DNA of 64,000 nt, taken from Candidatus Omnitrophota bacterium. Its GTDB lineage: Bacteria; Omnitrophota; Gorgyraeia; Gygaellales; Profunditerraquicolaceae. Made by a program: the position numbers and the translations under genes. Where the stretch lies: the NCBI GenBank assembly GCA_026387335.1, contig JAPLLX010000002.1:77326-141325 (forward strand), given 5' to 3'. Under the pieces are notes generated by a model, which did not search any database, was not told the DNA's origin, and was given only the letters and a program-made list of their open reading frames with translations. Positions 3,566-46,357 of the stretch are shown here, piece by piece (the stretch's first letter is position 1; each line of letters opens with the position of its first letter).

Positions 3566-4673
3566 ATGTTAGATGAGATAAAAACCAAACTTAGCCTTAT
3601 CCAGATCAGCCTGGAGCAACTAAGAGGTTATCTTTGACATTGATAACAAAAAGAAGCTTATAGCGGATTTATCGGCGAAGATGTCCGAGCCCGGATTTTG
3701 GGATGCCGGCGAGAATTCTACGAAAATAGTCCGGCAGCTCAAAATCCTTAAAAATACGGTTGAACCGTGGGACTCCGCGGGTAAAAAATTTCAGGAGTTG
3801 CAAGAACTCACCCTTCTCCTTAAACCCCAGGATAGCGAATTCTTTTCAGATCTAAACAAGTCCGCGGATTCTCTTCTGAAGGAGTTGGGAGCGTTAGAAT
3901 TTAAGACTCTTCTATCCGGAGAACTTGACCCGAACAACGCGATTTTAAGCATCAACGCCGGAGCCGGCGGGACCGAGTCTTGCGATTGGGCAGAGATGCT
4001 TTTTAGGATGTATTCCCGTTTTTGCGAGAAGAGAGGCTGGAAGGTCAAGGCTATAGATGTGCTTTATGGAGAAGAAGCCGGCATAAAGAATGTCACGGTT
4101 TTAGTTGAAGGGGATTATGCTTACGGTTATCTTAAGGAAGAGCGCGGAGTGCATAGGTTAGTGCGTATATCGCCTTTTGACGCTAATAAGCGCAGGCATA
4201 CATCTTTCGCTTCGGTAGATGTGATCCCTGAAGTCCTGGAGGATATAGACGTAAAACTGGAAGAAAAAGACTTAAGGATCGATGTTTACCGTTCCAAGGG
4301 CGCGGGAGGCCAAAGCGTAAATACTACGGATTCCGCGGTGAGGATCACGCACCTACCCAGCGGAATAGTCGCGCAATGCCAGAACGAACGCTCGCAGCAT
4401 CAGAATAAACAGACAGCGTTAAAGATCTTAAAGGCGCGCATATATGATATGGAAAGGCTTGCTCGGGAAGCAGAGATGCTCAAAAATTACGCCGGAGGGA
4501 AAAAGAAGATAGAATTCGGAAGCCAGATCCGCTCTTATGTTATGCACCCCTACAGTATGGTTAAGGACCACCGCACAGATCATGAGACCGGGGATGTTTC
4601 TAGCGTCATGGATGGGGCCCTGGATGAATTTATTGAAGCGAATTTAAAGTTGCAAAAAGGAAGAAAAAAATAA
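3566..4673 (+). CDS. prfB: peptide chain release factor 2, expressed through a programmed +1 frameshift (3566..3634 joined to 3636..4673)
   Basis: A short frame, ATG 3566 through CTT 3632-3634, runs into in-frame TGA 3635-3637. The +1 frame starting at GAC 3636 is the same frame as tracked ORF 3681..4673. RF2 motifs SPF (ISPFDA) and GGQ (GAGGQSVN) are present. Confidence 0.9.
3623..3638 (+). promoter_or_regulatory. prfB autoregulatory +1 frameshift site (SD-like GAGG, then CTT TGA C)
   Basis: The sequence AGAGGTTATCTTTGAC matches the canonical CUU UGA C slippery/stop context with an upstream SD-like element. Confidence 0.85.
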
Positions 4674-7600: not shown

Positions 7601-9561
7601 GAAAACAATTAGCAACTGAGTTAATTTTATGTTTCTCTAGCGCGCTCCTGCTTATCCTTTCCTTTTCTTCAAGTAAGTGGTGCTGGGTATTCGCCTGGGT
7701 GTCTTTTGTGCCGTTGTTTTTTGCTCTGGAGAACAAAGGGGCTAAGCGAGCGTTTGGCCTGGCTTACTTTACGGGAATATTATTCTGGTCAGGCACAATA
7801 TATTGGTTAGCTAACGTAACTATTTTCGGCCAGATCCTTTTAATCCTGTATCTTGCGCTTTATTTTGGCCTGTTTGGTTTATTAATGACCCGGCCATTTG
7901 CCAAATGCAGCCTGTTATTTATACCCGCATTATGGGTCTTCCTTGAATATGCGCGCAGCCATCTTCTAACGGGCTTTCCCTGGGCTTTGCTGGGTTACTC
8001 GCAGTACGCGAATCTGGCGATTATCCAGATTGCCGATATCGCCGGAGTCTGGCTCGTCTCTTTCCTGGTCATGTTTGTGAATGTCGCTATTAAGGAAGCA
8101 TGGTCCAGGAGGCAGCGCAGGTATCTATTTTTTGCCGGTATTTTTTTAGCCCTCAGTCTTGCTTATGGGTCTTTAAGGTTGCCTAAGATCGAGAGCCCGG
8201 AGACATTAAGAATATCTGTTGTGCAGGGGAATATCCCGCAGGAGTTAAAATGGGAAGAGAGGGCCAGAGAATTTGTAATCAACAGGTATTTTAAGTTAAC
8301 CGGTGAGGCCAAGAAAGACGCGCCGGATTTAATCATCTGGCCTGAAGCAGCCCTGCCGGTAGTCCTGGAAGAGCAACCTCTTTATTATGAAAGATTAAGC
8401 CGGTACACAAAAACAATCGGCCGGCCGTTAATTTTTGGCGCGGTCACCAGCCGTAACGACGCTTATTATAATAGCGCGCTGCTCTTATCTAAAGAAGGCA
8501 GATTATTAAGGAGTTACGATAAGTTCCACCTTGTTCCGTTCGGTGAGTTTATTCCTTTCCGAAAGGCTTTTCCGTTCCTAGAGACAATCGCTCCCATTGG
8601 CGATATTACCAGGGGCCGGGATTATACCCTGTTTAATATCCAGCATCAGGGTTTAAGGATAAGGCATCAATTCGGGGTATTGATCTGTTTTGAAGATGTT
8701 TTTCCGGAATTAGCCAGGGAATTTGTAAACAAGGGCGCGGATTTTCTGGTCAATATTACCAATGACGCCTGGTTTGGCAAGACTACCGAAGCCTACCAGC
8801 ATCTGGCCGCTTCGGTTTTTAGGGCGGTAGAGAACAGGGTTTGCCTGGTGCGCTCGGCCAATACCGGCATCTCCGGATTTATCGACCCGCAAGGAAGAGT
8901 TGTTCCTTTAGCTGACGCGCAAGGTAATTTAATTTTTACCCCGGGCTATAAAACAGAGAATATATTTTTGCCCGCGCATGCGTCATTTTACGGTTATTAC
9001 GGAGATTTTCTGATTCCTCTATGTTTATTGCTTCTTATATATATTATACTTTTTTCTTTATATAAAAAGGCGATGCGTAAGATCCTGCTGATTTCTCTGC
9101 TTATTTTGGCTATTTATTCAGCGATAAATTATTATTTCGCCGATAAATATTATTTTCTTTGCCCTATACGTTACGATACTAGTCTTATTGTCCGTAGCGA
9201 TTCCCGGGGGGATGGTTTTTTCGGCTCCAGCCGTAATGGCAATAGGATGCATCAGGGGATTGATTTGTTTGCCCAGGTCGGCACTCCGGTTTTGGCAGCT
9301 CGTTCGGGTATAGTTACGGCGGCCAAGAGCAACCGGGGTATGGGTAAGTATGTTATCATCCGCCATAGTTTTAATCTGGTCAGTATTTACGGACACCTCT
9401 CCCAGATTTTCGTTACTAAGAATCAAATCCTGCGCCAGGGACATATTATCGGCAGCGTTGGCAAGACCGGAAACGCCAGGCATCCCGGGATACAGCCGCA
9501 CTTGCATTTTGAGGTCAAGAAAAACGGCATTCCCCAGGATCCCTTGGAGTATTTAAAATAA
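7585..9561 (+). CDS. lnt: apolipoprotein N-acyltransferase continuous in frame with a C-terminal M23 (LytM-type) metallopeptidase module
   Basis: Lnt catalytic triad contexts are IIWPEAALP, YDKFHLVPFGEFIP and VLICFED. From ATG 9073 there is no intervening stop, and the frame continues with a TM helix plus M23 motifs HQGIDL and HLHFE. Confidence 0.75.
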   Translation: MLRQIRKQLATELILCFSSALLLILSFSSSKWCWVFAWVSFVPLFFALENKGAKRAFGLAYFTGILFWSGTIYWLANVTIFGQILLILYLALYFGLFGLLMTRPFAKCSLLFIPALWVFLEYARSHLLTGFPWALLGYSQYANLAIIQIADIAGVWLVSFLVMFVNVAIKEAWSRRQRRYLFFAGIFLALSLAYGSLRLPKIESPETLRISVVQGNIPQELKWEERAREFVINRYFKLTGEAKKDAPDLIIWPEAALPVVLEEQPLYYERLSRYTKTIGRPLIFGAVTSRNDAYYNSALLLSKEGRLLRSYDKFHLVPFGEFIPFRKAFPFLETIAPIGDITRGRDYTLFNIQHQGLRIRHQFGVLICFEDVFPELAREFVNKGADFLVNITNDAWFGKTTEAYQHLAASVFRAVENRVCLVRSANTGISGFIDPQGRVVPLADAQGNLIFTPGYKTENIFLPAHASFYGYYGDFLIPLCLLLLIYIILFSLYKKAMRKILLISLLILAIYSAINYYFADKYYFLCPIRYDTSLIVRSDSRGDGFFGSSRNGNRMHQGIDLFAQVGTPVLAARSGIVTAAKSNRGMGKYVIIRHSFNLVSIYGHLSQIFVTKNQILRQGHIIGSVGKTGNARHPGIQPHLHFEVKKNGIPQDPLEYLK

Positions 9562-14988: not shown

Positions 14989-15018
14989 TCTAGATTTTCC
15001 TATTAGCTAAAAACGCAT

Positions 15019-15045
15019 AAGGCAGGGTATTCACCCTGCCTTTAA
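15019..15045 (+). terminator. intrinsic terminator-like hairpin
   Basis: AAGGCAGGGT-attc-ACCCTGCCTT is a perfect 10-bp stem followed by a short T run. Confidence 0.55.
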
Positions 15046-15046
15046 T

Positions 15047-15733
15047 ATGATGAAGCTTAAATATATTTTAGTTATTGGTTACGGTATTTTGATTTTGGCT
15101 GGCTGCGCGGTCTTAAATAAACCTGTTCAGTTTGTCGATGATTTTATAGGCTCAACCTTTTTCCCTCCATATTCCGGGCCGAAGGCCAGGGTGGTCGTAG
15201 CTGATTTTGAGATTAAGACGGTTAATATTACTACTGAAGTGAACTTAGGCTTGCGCGATATGTTAATAGAGGAATTAAATAAAACCAATCGTTTTTTAGC
15301 GGTCTCTGCCCCTAAGGATTACGCTGAAAAAAACACCGGATTGATTATCGCGGCTGAGGTAATAAATTTTGATCCGCTTATATCCGGCGGAAGCGAAGGT
15401 ATCGGCGGAGGAGGAAGTTCAGCCAGCGGTACGCTGGGGAGTTTATTGGGCGTGAGCACCAATAAATCAGTCGTGGCTTTAAATATCCGTATAGTTGACG
15501 CGCTGTCGTCTAAAGTATTAGTCGCGGAGCGCCTTACGGGACAGGCCGTGGATACGGGCAGCTTAAGTCGGGAACACCATCATAAGGGAAGTAATTTAAA
15601 CGAAGGCCTATCCGCCTATGCCAATACCTCTATGGGGGAAGCAATCAATAAGTGTATTGCTGAAGCCGTAAGGTATATTGTGCGCAAGGTTCCGGATAGC
15701 TATTATAAAGGGGATAAAAATGGGAAAGCGTAA
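15047..15733 (+). CDS. lipoprotein, CsgG-like (curli-type secretion channel family) candidate
   Basis: Lipobox ILAGC, a Gly/Ser-rich loop GGSEGIGGGGSSASG, and size and pattern reminiscent of the CsgG family. Weak call. Confidence 0.35.
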   Translation: MMKLKYILVIGYGILILAGCAVLNKPVQFVDDFIGSTFFPPYSGPKARVVVADFEIKTVNITTEVNLGLRDMLIEELNKTNRFLAVSAPKDYAEKNTGLIIAAEVINFDPLISGGSEGIGGGGSSASGTLGSLLGVSTNKSVVALNIRIVDALSSKVLVAERLTGQAVDTGSLSREHHHKGSNLNEGLSAYANTSMGEAINKCIAEAVRYIVRKVPDSYYKGDKNGKA

Positions 15734-25838: not shown

Positions 25839-25937
25839 ATGATCTGGCTGTGGATAATTTTAGGTATTGTTGTCGTGGTTATTTTGTTTAGGAAATTTTG
25901 CGGTAAATGCGGGTGCGGCTGTTCCCCTAAGAAATAA
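25839..25937 (+). CDS. 32-aa TM micro-protein with Cys-rich tail (FeoB-associated Cys-rich membrane protein-like)
   Basis: Not in the ORF track. RBS AAAGGAGGGAAG precedes MIWLWIILGIVVVVILFRKFCGKCGCGCSPKK, and a terminator follows. Confidence 0.45.
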   Translation: MIWLWIILGIVVVVILFRKFCGKCGCGCSPKK

Positions 25938-26005: not shown

Positions 26006-26034
26006 TTGACAAATGATACAATTATGGTATCATT
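26006..26034 (+). promoter_or_regulatory. promoter of the Rrf2 gene with an overlapping inverted repeat (candidate autoregulatory operator)
   Basis: TTGACA at 26006-26011 and TGGTATCAT at 26025-26033. The inverted repeat AATGATAC-N7-GTATCATT (26012-26034) spans the spacer and -10 element. Confidence 0.55.
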
Positions 26035-26051
26035 TCTGAAGAAAGGAGAAG

Positions 26052-26450
26052 ATGAAATTAATCACCAGGAATACGGATTACGCATTAAGGGCGGTATGTT
26101 TTATGGCTAAACATAAGGGGAAGGTTGTTTCGGTCGCAGAATTGACCCGAAAATTACGGGTGCCCCGGCCGTTCTTAAGAAAGATACTCCAATCATTAAA
26201 CAGAAGCGGGATACTTAAGTCTCTTAGGGGACAGGGAGGCGGGTTCATCCTGGCGAAAGATGCGACGCAGATATTTCTAATGGATATAATGCGCATATTT
26301 CAGGGGAAATTGAGGCTAAACGATTGTCTGCTCAAAAAACTTATCTGTCCTAATAAAAGAAGCTGTCCTTTAAGAAAAAAGATCGCTAAAATTGAAAGTT
26401 ATGTGCTTAAAGAGTTAAGTGCTATTAATATAGCGTCATTATTGGAATAA
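26052..26450 (+). CDS. Rrf2-family transcriptional regulator
   Basis: 132 aa with MKLITRNTDYALRAVCFMA, a wHTH, and C-terminal cysteines (CLLKKLICPNKRSC) that could bind an Fe-S cluster. Confidence 0.85.
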   Translation: MKLITRNTDYALRAVCFMAKHKGKVVSVAELTRKLRVPRPFLRKILQSLNRSGILKSLRGQGGGFILAKDATQIFLMDIMRIFQGKLRLNDCLLKKLICPNKRSCPLRKKIAKIESYVLKELSAINIASLLE

Positions 26451-26577
26451 GAGAGAGAATATTGATGAATAAGTGTCCGGGGCAGGATGCGCAAAAGCAG
26501 TTGCCATATTGCTTAGTTTGTTGTATCTTAATATCACAGGTAAACAGGCTGCCGATAGGCAGCCAGGGAGGTGAAAT

Positions 26578-26637
26578 ATGAGTTGCGGATGCGGTTGTGG
26601 GACAAAGAAGAAAAAGAAAAAAGCCAAAAAGAAGTAG
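26578..26637 (+). CDS. 19-aa Cys/Lys micro-ORF (MSCGCGCGTKKKKKKAKKK)
   Basis: Not in the ORF track. Strong SD (CAGGGAGGTGAAAT), followed by a perfect 9-bp terminator. Shares the CGCGC motif with the 25839 micro-protein. Confidence 0.3.
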   Translation: MSCGCGCGTKKKKKKAKKK

Positions 26638-26647
26638 TTTTTTAGTC

Positions 26648-26685
26648 CGGGCGCCGTTTTAGCAAGCGGCGCCCGCTTATTTTCT
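26648..26685 (+). terminator. intrinsic terminator (or attenuator) upstream of the superoxide reductase gene
   Basis: CGGGCGCCG-N10-CGGCGCCCG is a perfect 9-bp GC stem followed by CTTATTTTCT. Confidence 0.65.
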
Positions 26686-26698
26686 AACGGAGGCAGCG

Positions 26699-27094
26699 AT
26701 GGCGGATTTAAAAGATTTATTGCAAAACGCAGATTGGAAAACCGAAAAACATGTTCCGGTTATTGAAGCCCCGGATAAGATCAACAAGGGCGAACCAGTA
26801 AAGGTTACTGTCAGTGTTGGCAAGCAGGTAGCCCATCCTAATACCACTGAACACCATATTAGATGGATCGAGGTCTATTTTCTGGGCCAGGGAGAAAAAT
26901 TTCCTTATCAGCTAGGCAGGTTTGAGTTCTCCAGCCACGGCGAATCAGCCCAGGGGCCCAACACCAGCACTATTTTTACTCAGCCGGAGGTTCTGCTTAC
27001 TTTTAAAACTGAGAAAAGCGGGACGATCCTGGCCGTTGCTTATTGTAATATCCATGGTTTGTGGAAAAACGCAAAAGAAATCCAGGTTGAATAA
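26699..27094 (+). CDS. sor: superoxide reductase, 1Fe neelaredoxin type
   Basis: 131 aa with EKHVPVIE, HPNTTEHHIRWIEVYF and CNIHGLW ligand motifs. No N-terminal desulforedoxin domain. Confidence 0.85.
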   Translation: MADLKDLLQNADWKTEKHVPVIEAPDKINKGEPVKVTVSVGKQVAHPNTTEHHIRWIEVYFLGQGEKFPYQLGRFEFSSHGESAQGPNTSTIFTQPEVLLTFKTEKSGTILAVAYCNIHGLWKNAKEIQVE

Positions 27095-27119
27095 TTTTAG
27101 CGGGATGAAACTTAAAAGC

Positions 27120-27148
27120 CTGTTCCTTAGGCAGGCAGGGAGGTAAGT
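27120..27148 (+). promoter_or_regulatory. conserved pre-SD element, copy B (CTGTTCCTTAGGCAGGCAGGGAGGTAAGT)
   Basis: Near-identical to 30041-30070 and related to 26556-26577 and 28355-28377. Lies immediately 5' of ATG 27149. Confidence 0.45.
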
Positions 27149-27442
27149 ATGTGTATGCTGGGTAAAATGGCCGGATATTTTGCTTTAGTACCTGCGACGA
27201 TGTTATTGGTAGTAAGCTTCTTTGTTTTGTTTACGCTCGGAAAGGTTGTTTCCCGTAATCTAAAGTTATTCGGAGCGGTGATTGTGGCCCTACTTTGGCT
27301 AAGCGCGCTGCTGATTTTTTCTACCGGAGCCTATACTACTGTTAAGGGTAGGCCGCCTTTTAAGTGCCCGATGATGGAGATGATGAAAGGTAAACAGGAT
27401 ATGATGCCTGGTGGTATGATGCAAGCCCCGCAACCCAAGTAA
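27149..27442 (+). CDS. membrane protein with Met-rich C-terminal tail
   Basis: 97 aa with 2 TM segments and tail [22 protein letters not shown]. Confidence 0.35.
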
Positions 27443-27455
27443 GGAGATATTCAAT

Positions 27456-27614
27456 ATGGATAAATACAAGTGCACTGTCTGCGGTTATATTTATGATCCT
27501 AGCCAAGGCGATTCTGTCGGGGGAATCCCCGCTGGTACGCCTTTTGATAAACTGCCCGCGGATTGGGTCTGTCCTGAGTGCGGAGTAGGCAAGGACATGT
27601 TTGAGAAGATTTAA
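27456..27614 (+). CDS. rub: rubredoxin
   Basis: Not in the ORF track (52 aa). [15 protein letters not shown]...[16 protein letters not shown] has both CxxCG knuckles. RBS AAGGAG. Confidence 0.9.
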
Positions 27615-27642
27615 CCGGGCAAGCTTAGTTTTAGGTACTTAA

Positions 27643-28347
27643 ATGGCTCAGGAATTATCCGTAAGAGTTAAAGAAATAATTCCCAGGACCTATAATGTCA
27701 AAAGCGTTCGGCTGGATATAGGTCAGGAAGCAGAATTTAAGGCCGGGCAGTTTCTTGCGGTCACACTGCAGGATAATCCGGGCCTAAAAAGATACCTTTC
27801 CATATCCAGCTCGCCCACTGAAAAATCTTACCTGGAATTTACCAAGAAGCTTACGGAAAGCGCTTTTTCAAAAGTCCTCCTGAAACTTAAGCCCCAAGAT
27901 CCCGTTAAGATCCAATACCCTATGGGTAAATTTACTCTGGATGACGCCTATACAAATATCGCGTTTTTATCCGGGGGGATCGGCATTACCCCTATAAGGA
28001 GCATAGTTAAATATGTTGTGGACAAAAATTTGGGGACGGATATGGTTTTAATCTATGCCAACCGGTCAGTAAAAGATATCGTCTTTAAAGAAGATTTTGA
28101 CGCGCTGCAGAAAGTTTATCCAAAGCTAAAAGTCGTCCATGTGCTTGGCGAACCTGCCCCGGATTTTAAGTGTATTCCCGGATTAATCAACGTCCAGGTG
28201 ATTAAAAACGAGGTGAGCGATTATCTAAATAGAAGATTTTATCTGTGCGGCCCGCCCCAGATGGTGGAAGTCATGGGAAAAATACTGACTGACGGATTGA
28301 AATTAGCTAAAGAAAATATAATTACGGAAAATTTTCAGGGGTACTAG
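27643..28347 (+). CDS. ferredoxin-NAD(P)+ reductase-like FAD/NAD(P)-binding oxidoreductase
   Basis: 234 aa with FAD motif RYLSISS and NAD motif GGIGITP. Confidence 0.7.
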   Translation: MAQELSVRVKEIIPRTYNVKSVRLDIGQEAEFKAGQFLAVTLQDNPGLKRYLSISSSPTEKSYLEFTKKLTESAFSKVLLKLKPQDPVKIQYPMGKFTLDDAYTNIAFLSGGIGITPIRSIVKYVVDKNLGTDMVLIYANRSVKDIVFKEDFDALQKVYPKLKVVHVLGEPAPDFKCIPGLINVQVIKNEVSDYLNRRFYLCGPPQMVEVMGKILTDGLKLAKENIITENFQGY

Positions 28348-28377
28348 AAAAATAACAGGCAGGGAAGGAGAAACGAT

Positions 28378-29571
28378 ATGGCAGTTTTAGAAATATTACC
28401 GGGCATCTATTCTGTAGGAGTTGTGGACTGGAACGTACGTAATTTTCACGGGCATACCTATACTACAAAGAGGGGCACTACCTATAATGCCTATCTTATT
28501 ATTGATGAAAAAGTCACCCTTATCGATACGGTTTACGGGCCTTTTGCCGCGGAGTTGATGGAAAATATCCGGCAGGTTATACCCGTGGAGAAAGTAGATT
28601 ATATTATCGCTAACCACGTGGAGACAGACCATAGCGGCGCGCTCCCTGAAATTATGAAACTCGTTCCGAAAGCTAAAATATTCGGGACAAAAAATTGCCA
28701 GGAAGGCCTCTACCGTTATTATTACGGCGACTGGGATTTTGGAATAGTTAAAACCGGAGATAAATTAAAATTAGGCAAAAGGAGTTTAACGTTTATTGAG
28801 GCTCCTATGGTCCATTGGCCGGATAGCATGTTTACCTATTGTCCCGAAGAAGAATTACTTATGCCCAACGACGCCTTTGGCCAGCATCTGGCGACTAATG
28901 AACGTTTCGCCGACCAGGTTGATCCGTGCGCGTTGTGGGATGAAGCGGCGAAATATTACAGCAATATACTCTGGCCGCTGGGGGCAGTCATCTTAAAGAA
29001 AATAGAAGAAGTCCTGAAATTAAACATTCCCATAAAGATTATCGCTCCCAGCCACGGCGTTATCTGGCGTAAGGATCCTATACAGATAATCAATAAGTAT
29101 GTCAGTTGGGCCAAGAATGAAACTTTGGCCAAGGTAGTCCTGGTCTATGAATCTATGTGGGGAGCGACTGAAAAGATGGCCCGTAAAATTATTGAGGGAG
29201 TCCAAAAAGAAGGGTTAAGCGTAAAGTTGTTTGATATAACCGGCTCTGACCGCACGGAAGTTGTTAAAGAGATGCTGGAGGCAAAAGGTTTTATTTTCGG
29301 TTCGTCAACCCACGATAATGGGATACTTACTACGCTGGCCGGCTTTCTGGAATTTATAAAGGGATTTAAACCGAAGAACAGGCTGGCCGCCAGTTTCGGC
29401 TCTTATGGTTGGGCCGGCGGGGCGGTTAAGCAGATAGAGGATATAGCAAAAGAAGCCGGCCTGGAGTTGGCAGCAACCGGATTGCAGGTAAAATATATGC
29501 CGGATAAGGATGACTTAGAAAAGTGTTTTGAATTCGGCAGGAATTTCGCTCTAAAGATAAAAGGGAAGTAA
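28378..29571 (+). CDS. fprA: flavodiiron protein (FprA / rubredoxin:oxygen oxidoreductase type)
   Basis: 397 aa with metallo-beta-lactamase diiron motif NHVETDHSGA and a C-terminal flavodoxin domain. Confidence 0.9.
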   Translation: MAVLEILPGIYSVGVVDWNVRNFHGHTYTTKRGTTYNAYLIIDEKVTLIDTVYGPFAAELMENIRQVIPVEKVDYIIANHVETDHSGALPEIMKLVPKAKIFGTKNCQEGLYRYYYGDWDFGIVKTGDKLKLGKRSLTFIEAPMVHWPDSMFTYCPEEELLMPNDAFGQHLATNERFADQVDPCALWDEAAKYYSNILWPLGAVILKKIEEVLKLNIPIKIIAPSHGVIWRKDPIQIINKYVSWAKNETLAKVVLVYESMWGATEKMARKIIEGVQKEGLSVKLFDITGSDRTEVVKEMLEAKGFIFGSSTHDNGILTTLAGFLEFIKGFKPKNRLAASFGSYGWAGGAVKQIEDIAKEAGLELAATGLQVKYMPDKDDLEKCFEFGRNFALKIKGK

Positions 29572-29574
29572 GCA

Positions 29575-30039
29575 ATGAGTCAGCTTAGTGAAACGGTTAT
29601 TCATTTTCTTCAAAGACAGGGGTGCGTTGTTGTCTCTAGCATTGATAGCCGGGGTTTTCCTCACTCTGCGTGCAAGGCGATAGTCAAAATTGAGAATAAT
29701 GGGACTGTTTATTTGTTGGACGCTTACCAAGGAAAAACTTTTCATAACCTGAAAAATAATCCTTTAGCCAGCGTGACTTCTTTTGACGAAGATAAATTCG
29801 CCGGTTATTGCCTTAAGGGCCGGGCGAGGATCTTATCCAAAGAAGAGCTGGATGCCGAAATAATCAAAGCTTGGGAGGAGAGGATCGTCAGCAGGTTAAC
29901 CCAGAGATTGCTTAAGAATATTCAGGGCGGGGCGAAAGGCCATCCAGGCCATCCGGAAGCTTTACTCCCTAAGCCCGAGCATATGATTGTTATTGATGTG
30001 GAAGAAGTTGTTGATCTTACGCCGCAGCATTTAAAGTAA
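29575..30039 (+). CDS. pyridoxamine 5'-phosphate oxidase-like FMN-binding split-barrel protein
   Basis: 154 aa. Family-like pattern only, a weak motif-level call. Confidence 0.5.
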   Translation: MSQLSETVIHFLQRQGCVVVSSIDSRGFPHSACKAIVKIENNGTVYLLDAYQGKTFHNLKNNPLASVTSFDEDKFAGYCLKGRARILSKEELDAEIIKAWEERIVSRLTQRLLKNIQGGAKGHPGHPEALLPKPEHMIVIDVEEVVDLTPQHLK

Positions 30040-30040
30040 T

Positions 30041-30070
30041 CTGTTCTTTAGGCAGACAGGAGGTAAAAGG
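30041..30070 (+). promoter_or_regulatory. conserved pre-SD element, copy D (CTGTTCTTTAGGCAGACAGGAGGTAAAAGG)
   Basis: See copy B. Lies 5' of ATG 30076. Confidence 0.45.
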
Positions 30071-30075
30071 AAAAT

Positions 30076-30312
30076 ATGGCTAAGAAGGTTAAGATTTATA
30101 GCACTCCTACTTGTCCGTGGTGTATCCGGGTCAAGCAGTTTTTAAAAGAAAATAATATAGTTTTTGAAGATTATGATGTTTCTTCCGACCCGGCAAAGGC
30201 TGAGGAGATGGTTAAAAAAACCGGGCAAATGGGTGTGCCGGTATTGGATATTGAAGGCGAAATCATCGTCGGGTTTGATAAAGAGAAAATAAAAGCGTCT
30301 TTAGGGTTCTAA
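30076..30312 (+). CDS. glutaredoxin-like protein (NrdH/YruB type)
   Basis: 78 aa with CPWC active site and GVPVL motif. Confidence 0.75.
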   Translation: MAKKVKIYSTPTCPWCIRVKQFLKENNIVFEDYDVSSDPAKAEEMVKKTGQMGVPVLDIEGEIIVGFDKEKIKASLGF

Positions 30313-39865: not shown

Positions 39866-42800
39866 ATGAAAGTCAAATTAAGAAAAATCCTATCTTTAGC
39901 TTTAACCATTAGTTTACTTTTTCAGCAAATAGGTTTTGCCCAGATAGCTACCGAACTTAACCTGGTCAATCACTTCGCCAGGATGGCTAGCAGTCTCACA
40001 GTAGAGAAATTTCGGCCCCTGCACCTGCGTTATTTCTCTTACGACAACTTAAATGACAATTTCAAGGTATTGGTGGATAAAGGTGACTTCGAGAAGGGAC
40101 TGTCCCCGAAGGGGGCTGTCCCTGAAGAGAAACTTAAAGAAGAAACCAAAACCCTCCTTAGCTACTTCCTTGTAGGAGTTACTCTTCCAGATAGTATGTT
40201 CTGGGTTAACCTGCGCCCTGATTCCGAAGACCAGATAATAGACCAGTATCTGGAGAAGACAGATATAGGTAAGATAATGCTGGAAGCAGATCTCCAGCTA
40301 AAGAAAGACACCGCGCTAATGACTTCTCCGGCTACCCCTGAAGGTAGGGAATACTGGGATAGGCTCTATAAGAAGGCAGCCGAGCTTTATGGCTATGATA
40401 ATGTTAGCATACCTACCTTAACCCGGCCCTGGATAGTCCCCGGAGAAATAATTGTCCGGGAATCTCAAGACTCAGCCTATGTTTATAAAGCTAATCTTAA
40501 GGTAATGCTGGAGCAGGATTACTTAAAAGATTCTAGTAACTATAACTTTAAAGACAGCCGCTCCAAAGCCCTGAATGAATACTCATCCGAACTAATAAGG
40601 GAATTAATTATCCCTAAGCTCACTAAAGAAGTAAACTCCAGCAAAAGATACGCTCCTTTACGCCAGGTATATTACTCTTTAATCCTGGCCCGCTGGTTTA
40701 AACTGCGCTTTAGCGGCAAAACCGGCACCTATGCTTCGCTCATTAACACTAGGAATTTAACTAACTTAATATCTAAAGACTCCTGGTCCAAGACCGATTA
40801 TTTTAAACAATACCAAAAATCCTTCTCTGAAGGCGAATACAATATCCAAGAACCAGTGCGTACCCCTACAGGCCAGGTAATCAGGAGTTACTTTAGCGGC
40901 GGGATAGATGTAGCTAGTAGCGCTATTAATACTCAGAATGGCGTTAGTAATCTTAAAGCGGCGTTGCCCCTTTCTTTGTTTTCTCGAACCGGAGTCATAA
41001 TAGGAGGAAATGCCGCAAGGCCTTTTAGCGTAAATCTGCAGCCCGTTGTTGCCGCTTCAGTCGGCGCCGCCTCGCCGGTTAAAACCTCTAGCCCGATATT
41101 TACTCTTGATGATAGAAATGGGGTAGTCTTTTCTGTTTATCCCAGAACAGAAATAAGAGAGGATCAACTAAGAGAGGCGGCGGAGGTTTTGAAAAACCGG
41201 ATTTTTAACTATCCAAAAAATGGCAAGATTATTGATATTCAGCTAGTCCCTGGCTCTAAGCGGCAGATAGCTTATCCTACGCGCTGGAAAATAGTTATAG
41301 AGCATAAGCCTGATTTAGAAGAAACTCTGGTTACATTAGTAAATGATCAGGGCAAAGTTATTATTAATATAGGCTATTCTATCGATAGTAAAGCGCTCGA
41401 TTTACCAGAAAAACTTCTTAACGAACACCTGCAGATGGCATTGATTAGCGCCGCATCCAGAATAAGGTTTAATTCACTGGCCGCCGCCTCGCCGGTTAGT
41501 TCATTAGAAAATCAAGCATATCTTCTTGCTTTAACCTTGGGCATAAAAGATTCAGAAAGGAAGTATGTCGCGGTGGTATTTATGATGCCTTTGATAAAAG
41601 CCTTTATGGATAATAGTAATCCTCCTCCGACTTCAAGCCAGGCCAAAGAATTCTATCAGAGAATAATAAATAATACAGACAAGACAGTTTCAGTTGAAGT
41701 TTTAGCCCGGTCGTTTGCTTTCCTTTCAAATCCGAACGCTAGCTTGTCGGAAAAAGAAAAATTCAACAGCTCGCCGGTGACTTCAAATTTAGCTAAGGCA
41801 GTTGAGGAAGCGCAAAGCCAGTTGCCGGCAGATGTAAATGAACAGATTTTAAAGTTTATTGTTACCGGCGATGAAAATGGAAGAATACTTTATCCTATTT
41901 GGCCGCAAGATTCTGTTATGGTCGGACATGTCAGAGATGACCGGGCTGGATATTTTGCCAGAGGCCTGCAGAATAGAGGCTTTAAAAATTTATTAGGATA
42001 TATTAAATTTACCAATGATTTCCAAGGTAAAGCTGTTTTGTCCGAAGAAACTATCGCTAGTGTTCCAAATACTTTTTTTGAGAGAATATCCAACAAGGGG
42101 TATCAAGTGTTGGTGATTTCTGAAGATGAGAAGAAAAGCCATACGGGTAAAAACGCTGCCGGTAGGAAAAAGGACGGGCTTTTCCCCGGGCAAAAACAGA
42201 TTGTAATACCTATGCAGAAATCTGAAATGGCCTATGTAGATACTCCCCAGATGAAAATGAAAGAATGCGCTGACGAGGTATTAAATGGACTGGATGACGA
42301 TGCTACAGATTTTATTTTAGTTAATCTGCTAAGTTCAGATATGATGAAACACACCGGTAACTTCCAAGCGGCAAAAAAAAGTAATGAAATAACCGACCAG
42401 CAGATCGGAAGAATAAAAGAAAAGGTTGATAGAATAAAAAGCCATATTCTGGGTGATATGATGAAAGAAGTCAATAAATACTTATCTAGAGAAGAGGCCA
42501 GTCAGCTTTATGTTTTACTATTGAATAATTATGCTGAATTTTTAGCAAGGCTGAAGAATAAAAACCAGGAGCTCTATAAACGGATAAAAGATTTAGAAGC
42601 CAAAATTCCCATCTTTGTTATTACTGCTGACCATGGCGCTTCTGAGGCAGGTCTCACTGATAATCCGAAGGAATCCGACACTTTCCATACAGCCAATCCA
42701 GTGCCGTATATTATTTATGATCCCCTAAGAACTCAAAAATTAGCTTTAAAGTCCGGACAGACCATCAGGAATAACGGGGCTACATTATTACACCTATTAG

Positions 42801-45800
42801 GCGAAGAGATCCCCCAAGGGTCTGATCCCAGCTTGCTGCCTGATGATTATCAAGGAAGTAAGCGTAGGATCACGATGGCTGTTTTGGATGGCTGGGGTAT
42901 AAACCCTGATCAGAATTATCCCTGGGATGCTATCCGGCTGGCCAATACACCTAATTATGACTGGATGGTTGAGAATGCGTCTTTCACTCAGGTCCAAGCG
43001 CACGGTGAAGTGATCGGATTAAGAGGCCCATTATCTTTGGAAGAAGGTAGACACCATTTAAGAGGCCTGCAAGCAGGCCAGACTGACGTTGGCCACCTGC
43101 ATTTGTTCTCACTGAGAGAGATTAAACAACCTTTATGGTATGTAGACAGGCTTATCAAAGGCAGTATACGCGATGGCGTTTTTGATGAAAGCAAACCCGA
43201 AGTCCAGGTATTGGTAAAAGAATTACAAAGGGTTAAGGATAATAATTTGAGATTTCATTATATAACCATCGCTTCTGAGGGTGGAGTGCATTCTTCGCTC
43301 TATCATATGTATGCCTTGATGAGATTAGCTAAGAAAATCGGCTTAAGGCAGGATCAATTTATTATCCATTTTGCCGCTGACGGTAGGGATGTGCCTACGC
43401 GCACCGCGCATCTATACATTCAGGATGTTGAAAAACGCATTGAAGAAATTGGAATAGGCGTAATTGCAACGGTATTTGGCAGGGATATGTTCGTACGTAA
43501 GGATGGCGCAGAAAATATCACTAATCGCATCATTGATGTAATGGAGGGTATTAATCTGGATGCGCAGGATGTCACGCAGGTAAAATCTGTCGCCAGCTCG
43601 GCGGTCACAGCAGTAGAATCTTTGAGAAATGATATTCTAACTAGGCTAAAAGAACGGATAAAAGATGATTCTGTTGTTAACCTGGTAAGGTCAAACTACT
43701 TATTTTATACGGCGAATACTCCTTCTAAATTAGCAAAGGCACTTGTTCAGATAGAAGAGAATCTGGATGGATTGATTATGTCTGCCACCGAAGAAAGATC
43801 GAGAGACCTGCAGACGCTCCAAGAATCAATAGAATCAGAACTGGCTAAACTTGTCTCCGTCGACTTGCCGGTGGAGACTATCAGTGAATTTGCAAAGATA
43901 GTTGAAAAACTGGCTGGTTATGGAGATGTAAGTTTTGATATATCGGGAACGGGAACTTTGAGAATACGCTATGCTGGTAATTTGTCTATGGTAGATAAGG
44001 TAGAAGCCGACAAGCTTCTGGTTAAGGCTAGAAAATTAATAGTAGAAGTTTCTTCTATAATAGGAAAAAAGATAAGCCAGTCATATGTGATGAAATTCCC
44101 GCAGGGGACTTTAGCTGCTAAGATAAGGGAAGATTTACTGCTTGAAAAAGCAAGGATATCAGAAAGTTTCGCCAGCTCGGAGGTTACTTATATAGACATA
44201 AATGAAGTAAGGCCGCCGGATAAGAGTTTTACTTTTCAACCCACAAATGGAGTGAGAATTTTTATTAATAATCGTGTCAATTGGTATACTCTGCAATTGG
44301 CTAGGTATGAGCCGGGAAAGAAGAATTATTTGATATTTAAGATTGGCAATCAACCTGTTCATTACGCTTACCTGAGCAGTAATCTTACAATTGGCCAACA
44401 GGATGTTGTTAGGACTATAATGAGAAAAATAGAGAATGGAACTCAGCTGTGGACAGAAATAGACTTAATCCAAGCGTTGGAAAAAGCATTATCTATGTCA
44501 CAATATAAGCCTAAAACTCAAGAATTACCGTCACCAATTATAATAGAACCTATTGTAGATAATAAAATTAAAGTGGAGTCGGGTGATTCAGAGCGCGCCA
44601 GCTCGCCGGTGCAGAAGGAAGAAAGATCGAACTATCTATTCTCTGGGTTACAGGAGGCAACCTTAGATGCAATTGGGGATATCCAGGGATTGGCAAGTTG
44701 GGCGCCTTTAATAGAAGAAGGCCCCAGCGGCGTAGAGCTAGGTATGGATATTATAATGAAGGAATACGGTTTAGATTCAGATAAGCCTATTCTTACGCAA
44801 CGATTAGCCGAACCAGGTAATTTTAAAGAGCTTTTGGAAAAAATCGATAAATTATATGAGTTTTTGGAAAAAAAATTAGAGAGCTTTTCTAAATTACTCG
44901 CTGATGTTAAAGAACAACAAAAGAAAATAATGACCCAGCATATAAGTAGTGTTAGCGACCAGGGTAAGGGTATAGAAAAAAGTTCCGTTTATTGGGGGAG
45001 TGAGTTTGTTTTAGAAGTTGCAATTAATAACATTGAAATAGCAATGCTTAAGTTAAGGCAAGCTGTTGAGAAAGTCAAAGGAGATATAGCTATTGTACCC
45101 AACTCATATATCGGGACTAAATTAAAGGAAGGCGCCAGCTCGGCGGTAACCAGAGAGAAAAAAGAGTCAGTTAACCTTTTAGGCGGAAGCACGCAAAAAA
45201 GAGTGCTTAGGGTTTATGAAGAGAAGGGCAGAGATTTAATAGCTACAGCCCTAGCTACAGGCCTTACTTTGGATATTGTATCTGAGTATGTTAAGGACGC
45301 CAAGCGTAATCCGGCCAGCTCGGCGGTGACGGAAAAAATTAAGGAAACGTTTCGCCAAGGAGGACTTTCCTTGAGTGAGTATACTATGGATTATATCGCG
45401 AAAAGGTTAAGCTCCATATTAAAGGATGGCGATGATATTGATAGAGATACTGCTGCTAAAATATTAATTAGCGTATATGATAATAATAAGCTTGCGGGTG
45501 GAACTCGAGCCCTCGGTCAAGTGTTTGCAACGCTTAATGATGCCAGGGAATTGCGGGAAATGGTAAAATACATCCGCGATCAGAAGGATAAATCTGTTGC
45601 CAGCTCGGCGGTGCATCATAAAATAATCAACCTCTACGATTTTGATTCTATCAAGGCGAAGAAAATAGATCCAAGTATTTTAAAAAATAGATTCATAGAG
45701 AAAATAGAAGAATTAATAGCAGATGTAAGGGAAGGTAAGAGAAGAGAATTTGCCGGTGAGTTGATACGATTAGCGAAAGCTGATGAGAACCTTTATACGA

Positions 45801-46357
45801 TTTGGTTTACCGATACAACATGGGTAGATATTAGACCTCAAGGGACAGAGATAGATATTAATTTTAGGTGTCGAGCTGGAATAGAGCAAAGCGTTGTGTG
45901 GGATGTTAGGCGTTTGATTAAGCTTTCCCAGTCAGAATTGTTAGTAGGAACCGTCGGCTCGGCGGTGCAGACTCCTGAGGAGACCGCAAGTTCAGCGTTG
46001 ACTCCCGGCGGTATTGATTTCCGCGCTCTACCGATGAGCATCCAGCCGATGGGAAGTTTTGCGGGCCTGAATTTTAAGCTGCCGCAGTTGACTCAAGCGC
46101 AGCTTAAGCAAATCAATATTGAATCAGAGATGCAACAGGTTAAGAATCTGGTAGAATCAGGGATTGTTCCTTCCGGAGACAGGATTAAAGAGCTTATCGC
46201 CGCTTGCAGCCAGAAGGGGAAGATTAGTTATTATGTAGATAATCTATTACTCTGCCTGGTAGATATATGTAAACTTGAAGAGCAGAATGCCTTTGAAACT
46301 TCCCCGGAGCTAAGAGAGGCGCTGGCGATTGTTGATTCGCTTGGCGGGCAGGTATAA
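39866..46357 (+). CDS. giant secreted mosaic protein (2163 aa) with embedded circularly permuted iPGM-like phosphatase domain; function unknown
   Basis: Uninterrupted 6.5-kb ORF with RBS AAAAGGAG and signal peptide MKVKLRKILSLALTISLLFQQIGFAQ. Has recurring ASS(A/P)V junctions, iPGM motifs (see findings), and a C-terminal PGGIDFRALP region. Confidence 0.9.
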   Translation: MKVKLRKILSLALTISLLFQQIGFAQIATELNLVNHFARMASSLTVEKFRPLHLRYFSYDNLNDNFKVLVDKGDFEKGLSPKGAVPEEKLKEETKTLLSYFLVGVTLPDSMFWVNLRPDSEDQIIDQYLEKTDIGKIMLEADLQLKKDTALMTSPATPEGREYWDRLYKKAAELYGYDNVSIPTLTRPWIVPGEIIVRESQDSAYVYKANLKVMLEQDYLKDSSNYNFKDSRSKALNEYSSELIRELIIPKLTKEVNSSKRYAPLRQVYYSLILARWFKLRFSGKTGTYASLINTRNLTNLISKDSWSKTDYFKQYQKSFSEGEYNIQEPVRTPTGQVIRSYFSGGIDVASSAINTQNGVSNLKAALPLSLFSRTGVIIGGNAARPFSVNLQPVVAASVGAASPVKTSSPIFTLDDRNGVVFSVYPRTEIREDQLREAAEVLKNRIFNYPKNGKIIDIQLVPGSKRQIAYPTRWKIVIEHKPDLEETLVTLVNDQGKVIINIGYSIDSKALDLPEKLLNEHLQMALISAASRIRFNSLAAASPVSSLENQAYLLALTLGIKDSERKYVAVVFMMPLIKAFMDNSNPPPTSSQAKEFYQRIINNTDKTVSVEVLARSFAFLSNPNASLSEKEKFNSSPVTSNLAKAVEEAQSQLPADVNEQILKFIVTGDENGRILYPIWPQDSVMVGHVRDDRAGYFARGLQNRGFKNLLGYIKFTNDFQGKAVLSEETIASVPNTFFERISNKGYQVLVISEDEKKSHTGKNAAGRKKDGLFPGQKQIVIPMQKSEMAYVDTPQMKMKECADEVLNGLDDDATDFILVNLLSSDMMKHTGNFQAAKKSNEITDQQIGRIKEKVDRIKSHILGDMMKEVNKYLSREEASQLYVLLLNNYAEFLARLKNKNQELYKRIKDLEAKIPIFVITADHGASEAGLTDNPKESDTFHTANPVPYIIYDPLRTQKLALKSGQTIRNNGATLLHLLGEEIPQGSDPSLLPDDYQGSKRRITMAVLDGWGINPDQNYPWDAIRLANTPNYDWMVENASFTQVQAHGEVIGLRGPLSLEEGRHHLRGLQAGQTDVGHLHLFSLREIKQPLWYVDRLIKGSIRDGVFDESKPEVQVLVKELQRVKDNNLRFHYITIASEGGVHSSLYHMYALMRLAKKIGLRQDQFIIHFAADGRDVPTRTAHLYIQDVEKRIEEIGIGVIATVFGRDMFVRKDGAENITNRIIDVMEGINLDAQDVTQVKSVASSAVTAVESLRNDILTRLKERIKDDSVVNLVRSNYLFYTANTPSKLAKALVQIEENLDGLIMSATEERSRDLQTLQESIESELAKLVSVDLPVETISEFAKIVEKLAGYGDVSFDISGTGTLRIRYAGNLSMVDKVEADKLLVKARKLIVEVSSIIGKKISQSYVMKFPQGTLAAKIREDLLLEKARISESFASSEVTYIDINEVRPPDKSFTFQPTNGVRIFINNRVNWYTLQLARYEPGKKNYLIFKIGNQPVHYAYLSSNLTIGQQDVVRTIMRKIENGTQLWTEIDLIQALEKALSMSQYKPKTQELPSPIIIEPIVDNKIKVESGDSERASSPVQKEERSNYLFSGLQEATLDAIGDIQGLASWAPLIEEGPSGVELGMDIIMKEYGLDSDKPILTQRLAEPGNFKELLEKIDKLYEFLEKKLESFSKLLADVKEQQKKIMTQHISSVSDQGKGIEKSSVYWGSEFVLEVAINNIEIAMLKLRQAVEKVKGDIAIVPNSYIGTKLKEGASSAVTREKKESVNLLGGSTQKRVLRVYEEKGRDLIATALATGLTLDIVSEYVKDAKRNPASSAVTEKIKETFRQGGLSLSEYTMDYIAKRLSSILKDGDDIDRDTAAKILISVYDNNKLAGGTRALGQVFATLNDARELREMVKYIRDQKDKSVASSAVHHKIINLYDFDSIKAKKIDPSILKNRFIEKIEELIADVREGKRREFAGELIRLAKADENLYTIWFTDTTWVDIRPQGTEIDINFRCRAGIEQSVVWDVRRLIKLSQSELLVGTVGSAVQTPEETASSALTPGGIDFRALPMSIQPMGSFAGLNFKLPQLTQAQLKQINIESEMQQVKNLVESGIVPSGDRIKELIAACSQKGKISYYVDNLLLCLVDICKLEEQNAFETSPELREALAIVDSLGGQV
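43592..45613 (+). repeat. dispersed in-frame 14-mer GCCAGCTCGGCGGT (4 exact copies, 2 one-mismatch copies)
   Basis: Exact copies start at 43592, 45134, 45314 and 45599. One-mismatch copies start at 44171 (GCCAGCTCGGAGGT) and 44597 (GCCAGCTCGCCGGT). Degenerate relatives start at 41066, 41480, 41768, 45956 and 45986. Confidence 0.9.

Follow-up and report, generated by a model that had tools for sequence, protein, structure and literature searches.

Hairpin motifs in an oxygen-detoxification gene cluster

We analyzed a 64,000-nucleotide stretch of contig JAPLLX010000002.1 from a Candidatus Omnitrophota bacterium (hereafter the window). It contains a plus-strand cluster of genes for the detoxification of oxygen and reactive oxygen species (O2/ROS; hereafter the island), in which a small hairpin motif lies directly 5' of several Shine-Dalgarno (SD) sequences. 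The island includes genes for superoxide reductase, a Met-rich membrane protein, a flavodiiron protein (FprA) and glutaredoxin (Grx), and is preceded and followed by Rrf2 regulator genes (Table 1). The Met-rich protein was 100% identical to an NCBI protein named from a Candidatus Omnitrophica metagenome-assembled genome (MAG), and the nearest flavodiiron loci in the genome collection were those of Omnitrophota MAGs. A first-pass annotation had placed the motif in front of four genes of the island, those of the Cys micro-open reading frame (micro-ORF), the Met-rich protein, the flavodiiron protein and glutaredoxin (copies A, B, C and D, respectively). The motif sequences that it quoted were all present where it had placed them.

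Table 1. Genes and sequence features of the island, with positions in the window.
Feature	Position	Strand	Remarks
Rrf2 regulator	26052-26450	+	First gene of the cluster
Sigma-70-like promoter match	26501-26529	+	TTGCCA-17-TATCTT; from a consensus scan only; block conserved in L001, L002 and L204
Copy A	26547-26571	+	Arm GGCTGCC 26547-26553, loop GATA 26554-26557, arm GGCAGCC 26558-26564, SD AGGGAGG 26565-26571; precedes the micro-ORF start codon at 26578
Cys/Lys micro-ORF	26578-26637	+	19 codons, MSCGCGCGTKKKKKKAKKK; 5' of the superoxide reductase gene
Terminator-like GC hairpin	26648-26675	+	3' of the micro-ORF; listed by the terminator scan
Superoxide reductase, desulfoferrodoxin-type	26699-27094	+	
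Copy B	27118-27143	+	Arm GCCTGTT 27118-27124, loop CCTTA 27125-27129, arm GGCAGGC 27130-27136, SD AGGGAGG 27137-27143; precedes the Met-rich protein start codon at 27149
Met-rich membrane protein	27149-27442	+	97 aa
Rubredoxin, then FNR-like reductase		+	Between the Met-rich and flavodiiron genes
Copy C	28355-28377	+	3'-half relic only (ACAGGCAGGGAAGGAG), 5' of the flavodiiron gene; no 5' arm
Flavodiiron protein (FprA)	28378-29571	+	
PNPOx-like protein	29575-30039	+	TAA stop at 30037-30039
Copy D	30040-30063	+	Arm TCTGTT 30040-30045, loop CTTTA 30046-30050, arm GGCAGA 30051-30056, C, AGGAGG 30058-30063; begins immediately 3' of the PNPOx-like TAA stop
Glutaredoxin	30076-30312	+	Thioredoxin reductase, then a second Rrf2 regulator, downstream

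When the window was searched for TAGGCAGNCAGGRAGG with up to two mismatches, matches were obtained only at 26556, 27128 and 30049; 0.21 matches were expected, and none of 100 shuffled sequences reached three. The longer 5' part of the motif, CTGTTCYTTAGGCAG, was found exactly at copies B and D only. These two copies were identical at 24 of 27 aligned positions; the first-pass annotation had given about 90%. We scanned all 64 kb, with filters off, using a covariance model of the hairpin and the SD, in which copies A, B and D were among the seeds. The scores were 36.6 bits for A (E = 7e-8), 37.1 bits for B and 25.0 bits for D, and the rest of the window gave noise. Copy C lacked a 5' arm, had no predicted structure (0 kcal/mol in local folding) and scored at noise level (6.8 bits, E = 7). 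Thus there are three copies in the window, not four. No copy was found in the remaining 60 kb of the window, nor in the 7.5 kb beyond it in the close relative L211. About 60 other long ORFs in the window lacked the motif, and its presence at only 3 of about 60 genes indicates that it is not the organism's habitual SD context.

No Rfam 15 family matched at its gathering score in the 64 kb, and hits with E up to 10 in 26400-30200 were noise, none of them over the motif. Further, we found no literature match for the palindrome, for its SD-fused form or for palindromic repeats of Omnitrophota.

Folding and covariation of the copies

Each true copy can form a stem-loop of 6-7 bp, 5'-GNCUGYY/GGCAGNC-3', whose last pair is 0-1 nt from AGG(G)AGG. 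The small hairpin previously proposed just upstream of the SD was real in A, B and D, and its stem was longer than described. In local folding, the 7-bp stem proposed for copy A (GGCUGCC-GAUA-GGCAGCC) had an energy of -15.8 kcal/mol and was present in the minimum free energy (MFE) and centroid structures; it was robust when longer contexts were folded. Copy B (GCCUGUU-CCUUA-GGCAGGC) had -9.9 kcal/mol and was one of two registers in a longer context. Copy D (UCUGUU-CUUUA-GGCAGA) had -4.2 kcal/mol and was outside the MFE structure of its 71-nt context. The predicted probability that the SD is unpaired was 0.75 for A, 0.77 for B and 0.86 for D, and the MFE structures kept the SD open. The z-scores of the 60-70 nt contexts were unremarkable (-1.7 to +0.6); folding energy alone does not distinguish these regions.

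At the second pair of the stem, copy A has G-C, copy B has C-G and copy D has U-A, and the compensatory difference that had been noted between B and D thus holds. We examined pairing in ten copies from the window and its relatives, none of which had been found with a search pattern containing the SD. In this set, 95% of the cells were paired and two pairs showed double-sided changes. Only 1-2 of 500 shuffles matched the observed score, and registers slid along the stem gave 17-40% pairing. The non-Watson-Crick pairs were all U.G on the sense strand (in B and D of the window, the L001 micro-ORF copy and the L002 Grx copy), which favors an RNA stem over a DNA site.

The stems of A, B and D do not resemble intrinsic terminators: they are followed by AGGGAGG or AGGAGG rather than by T runs and were unlisted by the terminator scan. 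They likewise do not look like thermometers or riboswitches that sequester the SD, which folding predicted to be free by default in all three copies.

Several other candidates were considered and rejected. A LexA/SOS box (CTG-N-CAG, with one copy before recA) has misfitting half-sites, and the spacing here is 8-9 nt and variable. The resemblance of CAGGGAGG to the CsrA site CARGGAUG is inseparable from an ordinary SD, and the loops contain no GGA. Extended pairing with the anti-SD of 16S rRNA was set aside, the complementary 5' arm being a simpler account of the sequence. Pairing of the loop with the SD in a pseudoknot, or a helix with an anti-SD (UUCCU), is possible for B and for the broken form of D and impossible for A and the canonical copies described below; it is not general. 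Units of this kind are also far too short for integron attC-like cassette junctions, and no integrase is nearby.

The same island in relatives and sister strains

We compared the four junctions with those of the closest islands: L001 and L002, both with 83% identity in the flavodiiron protein; L204, with 65% identity in the Met-rich protein; and L003. At orthologous sites, alleles with and without the hairpin differed by a clean indel of 19-21 nt beside the SD. At site 1, the micro-ORF leader, it was present in the window and L001 and absent from L002 and L204. In the L001 copy (about 4578-4596), pair 2 was changed on both sides, from G-C to C-G. At site 2, the Met-rich gene, it was present in the window and absent from L001, L002 and L204. 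Here L204 has tttaaaAGGAGGTAAGTATGTGTATG against cttaaaa[GCCTGTTCCTTAGGCAGGCAG]GGAGGTAAGTATGTGTATG in the window, with the insert in brackets; in the other extent of this comparison, the insert-free L204 allele reads tttaaaAGGAGGTAAGTATG and the window cttaaaa[GCCTGTTCCTTAGGCAGGCAG]GGAGGTAAGTATG. At site 3, the flavodiiron gene, the window has the 3' half that is copy C, and the L001 copy is degenerate (18 bits). At the same site L002 carries an intact hairpin, GCCTGCC-TATCC-GGCAGGC (5971-5989), followed by AGGGAGG, and L003 and L204 have none, the stop codon abutting the SD. At site 4, after the PNPOx-like gene, the copy was weak in the window. It was a perfect 7-bp stem in L001 (7838-7856, before a rubrerythrin-like gene), an 8-bp variant in L002 (about 7838-7857), a CCTGCC remnant in L204 and absent from L003.

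Copies with the insert tend to have AGGGAGG, and insert-free alleles AGGAGG. Like those of the window, the copies of L001 and L002 were all within the island. The first-pass annotation had named covariation in homologous islands as a check on its proposal, and compensatory changes were found between both paralogous and orthologous copies.

Copies A and C were identical in same-species contigs from other samples (two contigs for A). In the diverged strain L214, the 5' arm of copy B reads GCCTGCT, a change of U.G to C-G by which the stem is retained and strengthened (-12.4 kcal/mol). Copy D differed: 6 of 11 same-species contigs, found using Grx as an exact-match query, carry CCCGTT, which gives two C.A mismatches and loss of the stem, and the Grx protein of these strains is identical to that of the window. 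From these sequences, the history of copy D reads as C-G to C.A to U-A in the window lineage, which would amount to a compensatory repair; the sister lineage decayed further. Retention of the B stem in L214 and loss of the D stem in the sister contigs indicate that selection on the stems is uneven.

A wider family in Omnitrophota

A metagenome scan with the pattern CTGYY-N3-6-GGCAGNCAGGGAGG gave at least 120 matches; the figures that follow are among the matches listed. At least 58 carry CCTG[CT][CT]-N3-6-GGCAGGCAGGGAGG, most of them the exact palindrome CCTGCCTGCCGGCAGGCAGGGAGG and the rest one- or two-base or loop variants. The base before CTG was complementary to N in 88 of 122 matches, and in 31 of these 88 a start codon of an ORF of at least 40 aa lay 2-12 nt past the SD. 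The canonical form is (G)CCTGCC-TGCC-GGCAGG(C), or (CCTG)n/(CAGG)n, and a large share of the copies are fused to the strong SD AGGGAGG. The unit is 19-24 nt in size, and its stems have 6-9 bp and -4 to -21 kcal/mol.

Ten of the downstream proteins, compared with Pfam, matched ABC_tran, GatC, RecA, RRF, Bactofilin, Hexapep (a hexapeptide transferase), Fer4, mini-rubrerythrin, PEMT (a PEMT-like methyltransferase) and YkuD (an L,D-transpeptidase). Only the RecA and ferredoxin proteins fell in clusters named by organism, and both were Candidatus Omnitrophota. The first-pass annotation had itself named a position before many unrelated genes as grounds for refuting its proposal, and at phylum level this is what was found, with copies before the genes for RecA, RRF, GatC, an ABC ATPase, ferredoxin, bactofilin, an L,D-transpeptidase and others. 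In the set of 31, which was chosen for an adjacent SD, 13 copies are intercistronic, at most 40 nt past a same-strand ORF, and for another 13 the 120 nt upstream are free of ORFs. Elsewhere in the same metagenome contigs there are additional copies that lack an SD, several per contig in some. By a hand tally, about 40% of the copies gathered without selection for an SD still lie flush against one.

In 80 FprA loci (830 kb), the model matched at E < 0.01 in seven, L001, L002, L004, L010, L013, L020 and L052. All seven are within the close FprA relatives titled Omnitrophota; L004 and L052 themselves are titled "uncultured Planctomycetales/Planctomycetia". No match at this threshold was found in the archaeal, Elusimicrobia, Thermodesulfobacteriota or other loci of the set. 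The FprA-locus copies include one before a BirA-like gene (L013) and one before a rubredoxin gene (L020).

For canonical copies of the form (CCTG)2CC-GG(CAGG)2-GAGG in L081-L200 (for example L132, L160, L166, L181 and L198), folding predicted a slipped register in which the SD is paired (unpaired probability about 0.2). The loop variants TACC and TGAC are predicted to keep the SD open (0.8-0.9).

Origin and predicted effect of the hairpin

We consider it probable (about 0.6) that A, B and D belong, as diverged copies, to a short GC-rich palindromic repeat family that is widespread in Candidatus Omnitrophota and resembles repetitive extragenic palindromic (REP) sequences, and that its effect is generic rather than that of an island regulator. 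The family is REP-like in that near-identical copies occur at unrelated intergenic sites on different metagenome contigs, several per contig in some, are gained and lost as blocks of 19-21 nt and are found in all states of decay. Further, the hairpin-SD unit stands before many unrelated genes across the phylum, which points to a generic repeat and not to a switch dedicated to the O2/ROS cluster.

In this lineage, three short spacers of the O2/ROS operon would each have received the unit, always directly 5' of AGG(G)AGG. We infer that the route was short-patch copying anchored on SD-like AGG repeats, as all four inserts abut AGG(G)AGG and copy D brings its own AGGAGG 5' of a second, native-looking SD, AAGGA (30067-30071, before the glutaredoxin start at 30076). 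Copying within one operon would be the simplest account of all the copies lying inside the island. Once transcribed, the unit is predicted to fold into its 6-7 bp stem-loop with the SD and the start codon left free. By analogy with known stem-loops, its effect would most likely be constitutive: it may shield the flanking cistrons from exonuclease decay or cap their 5' ends, and it may also insulate a strong ribosome-binding site by holding it single-stranded. Copy A would be about 10 nt from the transcript 5' end if the promoter-like match at 26501-26529 is used. On this reading, the hairpin is neither a sensor nor an operator specific to one regulon; decay is complete in copy C and under way in copy D.

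Several observations weigh against assignment to a generic REP-like repeat. No transposase or RAYT (REP-associated tyrosine transposase) gene was seen in the 64 kb and the short loci, and none of the 57 canonical copies listed had a GTAG or CGTC tag, or its complement, within 8 nt 5' of the stem; their 3' side is taken up by the SD. The copy density is low, roughly one per 50 kb in unselected Omnitrophota loci as tallied by eye. All three window copies lie in one 3.5-kb operon, a clustering that a random repeat does not predict. Selection or a preferred target is suggested by the compensatory changes and by inserts that lie flush with the SD at sites 1 and 2, where other positions were available. 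The effect that seems most likely, that of a stabilizer or insulator, is argued by analogy only. Finally, canonical copies are predicted to fold in a slipped register that pairs the SD (median unpaired probability 0.22, n = 21). As window copies are predicted to leave it free, members of the family may differ in effect.

The main rival is a selfish or neutral palindromic insertion without function, tolerated wherever the gene and the spacing from SD to start codon stay intact, as between stop codon and SD in compact operons. This explanation has a real, if minority, claim. It accounts for the gain and loss of copies between close relatives, for the relic C and the degenerate L001 FprA copy, and for the disruption of D in sister strains with an identical Grx protein. 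Further, the SD at sites 3 and 4 directly adjoins or overlaps the ancestral stop codon, which leaves a single insertion point. The flush placement and the compensatory changes are less easily reconciled with neutrality. Sites 1 and 2 offered other positions and the insert is still flush with the SD, and the share of flush copies among those not selected for an SD is far above chance. The changes from G-C to C-G at site 1 and from C-G to U-A via C.A at site 4, and the retention of B with U.G replaced by C-G in the diverged strain, also speak against it. We regard as doubtful a bolder reading, in which the hairpin and AGGGAGG form a portable ribosome-binding-site module, a new kind of small repeat that homes onto SDs across Omnitrophota. 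It would bring in a strong SD and a two-register stem (SD open or paired), toggled by a phylum-specific factor or by the translating ribosome, as a translational control common to many genes, those of the O2/ROS operon included. It is unlikely that the unit is the binding site of a phylum-wide RNA-binding protein or other trans factor, and thus a global operator of translation initiation. The stem sequence itself is nearly invariant in the canonical copies listed, over many contigs, the position of the unit is fixed relative to the SD, and the slipped register that hides the SD in canonical copies could be a two-state device. Against this, there is no known candidate factor, stem sequence and loop vary among the window copies, whose SD is predicted to be free, copies decay without effect on gene retention, and recent spread of a repeat explains the sequence identity equally well.

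To the first-pass annotation, the motif looked like a shared element of post-transcriptional control or processing, which could coordinate the micro-ORF, Met-rich, flavodiiron and glutaredoxin genes of the island. The shared structure 5' of the SD, the U.G pairs and the compensatory changes support a common structured element at the RNA level, but not control specific to the island, which we consider very unlikely even though all three copies in the 64 kb, and those of L001 and L002, lie inside it. Copy C is no member, the hairpins sit at different junctions in the window, L001 and L002, and L204 and L003 have the island and lack the hairpin. In addition, D is broken in sister strains, and the unit precedes unrelated housekeeping genes elsewhere. 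Coordination of the four genes is not supported, and several tests contradict an island-specific regulator. A palindromic DNA operator for one of the two flanking Rrf2 regulators or another transcription factor is highly improbable. Copy A is an 18-bp palindrome just 3' of a promoter-like match and Rrf2 genes flank the island, but B and D are intercistronic and no promoter-like match coincides with them, the arm spacing varies (loop of 4 or 5 nt), and the asymmetries are sense-strand U.G pairs, which would be mismatches in duplex DNA. Further, the Rrf2 promoter has a different palindrome, AAATGATAC-N7-GTATCATTT, which is also found in L008. L002 and L204 retain the Rrf2 gene but have no hairpin at the promoter-like site that precedes copy A in the window. 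Chance resemblance, or a preferred extended SD of this organism, which the first-pass annotation had allowed as an alternative, is refuted for practical purposes. The 3' part, AGGGAGG, is indeed an ordinary strong SD, but three matches were found against 0.21 expected, only 3 of about 60 window genes carry the motif, and every copy has a complementary 5' arm.

Comparison with known systems

REP and REPIN elements have been described in detail (Di Nocera et al., 2013, PMC3733652; Bertels and Rainey, 2011, PMC3116915), and REPs have been reported in the Planctomycetes-Verrucomicrobia-Chlamydiae (PVC) superphylum (PMC3733652). Most described REPs are marked by a GTAG or CGTC tag, unpaired at one end (PMC3733652). 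In the contigs covered, the Omnitrophota hairpin resembles REPs as a GC-rich palindrome of 20-40 nt at many unrelated intergenic sites, apparently mostly between co-directional genes, which is predicted to form an RNA stem-loop when transcribed and whose copies are gained, lost and decaying. Like them, it sometimes occurs as doublets or tandem arrays (L087, L092 and L203). It differs from them in the missing tag, in the lack of a RAYT gene in the DNA that we covered and in its much lower density. Further, it lies 5' of genes, fused to the SD in about 40% of unselected copies, whereas REPs are mostly 3' of coding regions. We therefore call the family REP-like and do not assign it to a described REP family, as the tag is absent, no tie to RAYT was seen, and copies are sparse and unusually often fused to an SD.

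The ompA 5' hairpin, the malE-malF REP and the puf operon hairpins are stem-loops that act as stabilizers at the 5' terminus or between cistrons. The hairpin resembles these in having a stable stem at a cistron 5' end or between cistrons, with the SD unoccluded; such stems can block exonucleases or attack by RNases that depend on the 5' end. In contrast, the known stabilizers are single, locus-specific structures with measured effects, and here we have a repeated family known from sequence.

In synthetic 5' untranslated regions, a hairpin directly 5' of the SD changes initiation up to 100-fold, in either direction, through structured standby sites (Espah Borujeni, Channarasappa and Salis, 2014, PMC3936740). 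The geometry is the same as that of the Omnitrophota hairpin, and that study predicts a penalty, not a benefit, for a hairpin flush with the SD. RNA thermometers and translational riboswitches also have a small hairpin by or over the SD, and canonical copies are predicted to pair theirs. In contrast, the SD of the window copies is free, the loops GAUA, CCUUA and CUUUA differ with no conserved loop like a ligand pocket, and Rfam gave no match. Neisseria Correia elements are small repeats of about 100-150 nt with terminal inverted repeats that donate promoters. The likeness is that of a short repeat bringing an expression signal to the adjacent gene; the Omnitrophota unit, of about 25 nt, would bring an SD.

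The analysis removes the tempting but unsupported idea of a dedicated riboregulator of the oxygen-detoxification island. The first-pass observation was largely right and its regulatory interpretation largely wrong. In its place stands a palindromic repeat family of an uncultivated phylum, with no description found in the literature or Rfam and, unlike classical REPs, welded to the SD; we regard the element as a REP-like hairpin-SD module of Omnitrophota and as modestly novel. Should its fusion to the SD prove functional, a small repeat could rewire translation initiation and operon stoichiometry, and it would give gene callers and ribosome-binding-site models for Omnitrophota a recognizable start-site signal. 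If it is neutral, the family would still be a useful marker of recent micro-rearrangements in these genomes.

Related elements and other features

The same palindromic core occurs in contigs of a viral collection with 54-62% GC (L201, L202 and L203). In L201 (2644-2920, 8994-9026 and 10416-10715) and L202 (1533-1562), it lies inside longer inverted repeats, CCCACCCTC...GAGGATGGGG, and in L203 (3914-4142) at least 10 units of 21 nt (GCCATGCCTACCGGCAGGCAG) are arrayed in tandem up to the contig end. In contigs of about 50% GC (L085, L145, L163, L169, L171 and L172), the palindrome is followed by a purine-rich, GGAGGACACGGAGGAGAG-like stretch and terminator-like hairpins, with no ORF start; this subgroup may be a different non-coding element built on the same core. 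A direct repeat of about 85 nt or more (gaataacaaac..ttatgagtgaaat) flanks the palindrome on both sides in L052 (5460-5672).

Within the island, the block AAAAGCAGTTGCCATATTGCTTAGTTTGTTGTATCTTAAT (26493-26532), which contains the promoter-like hexamers, is conserved in L001, L002 and L204. An inverted repeat in it, AAGCA-N10-TGCTT, covers the -35 region and is a candidate operator of the island. The Rrf2 gene has a promoter-like site of its own, TTGACA-16-TATCAT with an upstream TG (26006-26035), overlapped by AAATGATAC-N7-GTATCATTT. This inverted repeat also lies 5' of an Rrf2-like gene in L008 (about 100-150) and is likely an autoregulatory Rrf2 operator, distinct from the hairpin motif.

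The micro-ORF is conserved, with 19-20 codons, N-terminal Cys-Gly repeats and a poly-Lys tail (MSCGCGCGTKKKKKKAKKK, MGCGRCGPGAKKKKKKAKKK, MGCGKCSCGSKKKKKKAKKK). A GC-rich terminator-like hairpin is always 3' of it and 5' of the superoxide reductase or Met-rich gene; the two together occupy 26578-26675 in the window, 4607-4710 in L001, 4199-4300 in L002 and a site between 3137 and 3510 in L204. The micro-ORF could be a leader peptide or attenuator, or a genuine small metal-binding peptide. A 32-aa ORF 5' of the Rrf2 gene (25839-25937) encodes a single transmembrane helix with a CGKCGCGCSPKK tail. L204 and L205 have a called gene of 32 aa at the equivalent position, and the Cys-Gly/Lys theme is common to it and the micro-ORF. 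A further ORF of 39 codons (26462-26581) reads through hairpin A and has an ATGA overlap with the micro-ORF start. Its N-terminus, MMNKCPGQD..., matches Cys-rich proteins of 70-75 aa in L002 (3919-4131) and L007 (2660-2887), and it looks like a truncated remnant.

A gene for a 58-aa rubrerythrin-like mini-protein lies between the flavodiiron and PNPOx genes of L001, L002 and L003 (7197-7375) and is absent from the window (29571-29575), and in L001 and L003 the glutaredoxin gene is also preceded by a rubrerythrin-like gene of 158 aa. The island is a mosaic of small cassettes with hairpins at variable junctions.

Elsewhere in the window, a perfect hairpin, AAGGCAGGGT-attc-ACCCTGCCTT, at 15010-15046 lies directly 5' of an ORF starting at 15047. 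It resembles the GGCAGG arm in a different arrangement, and the overlapping minus-strand match to the model scored only 7.3 bits (E = 5.3). A single ORF of 2163 codons occupies 39866-46357 on the plus strand.

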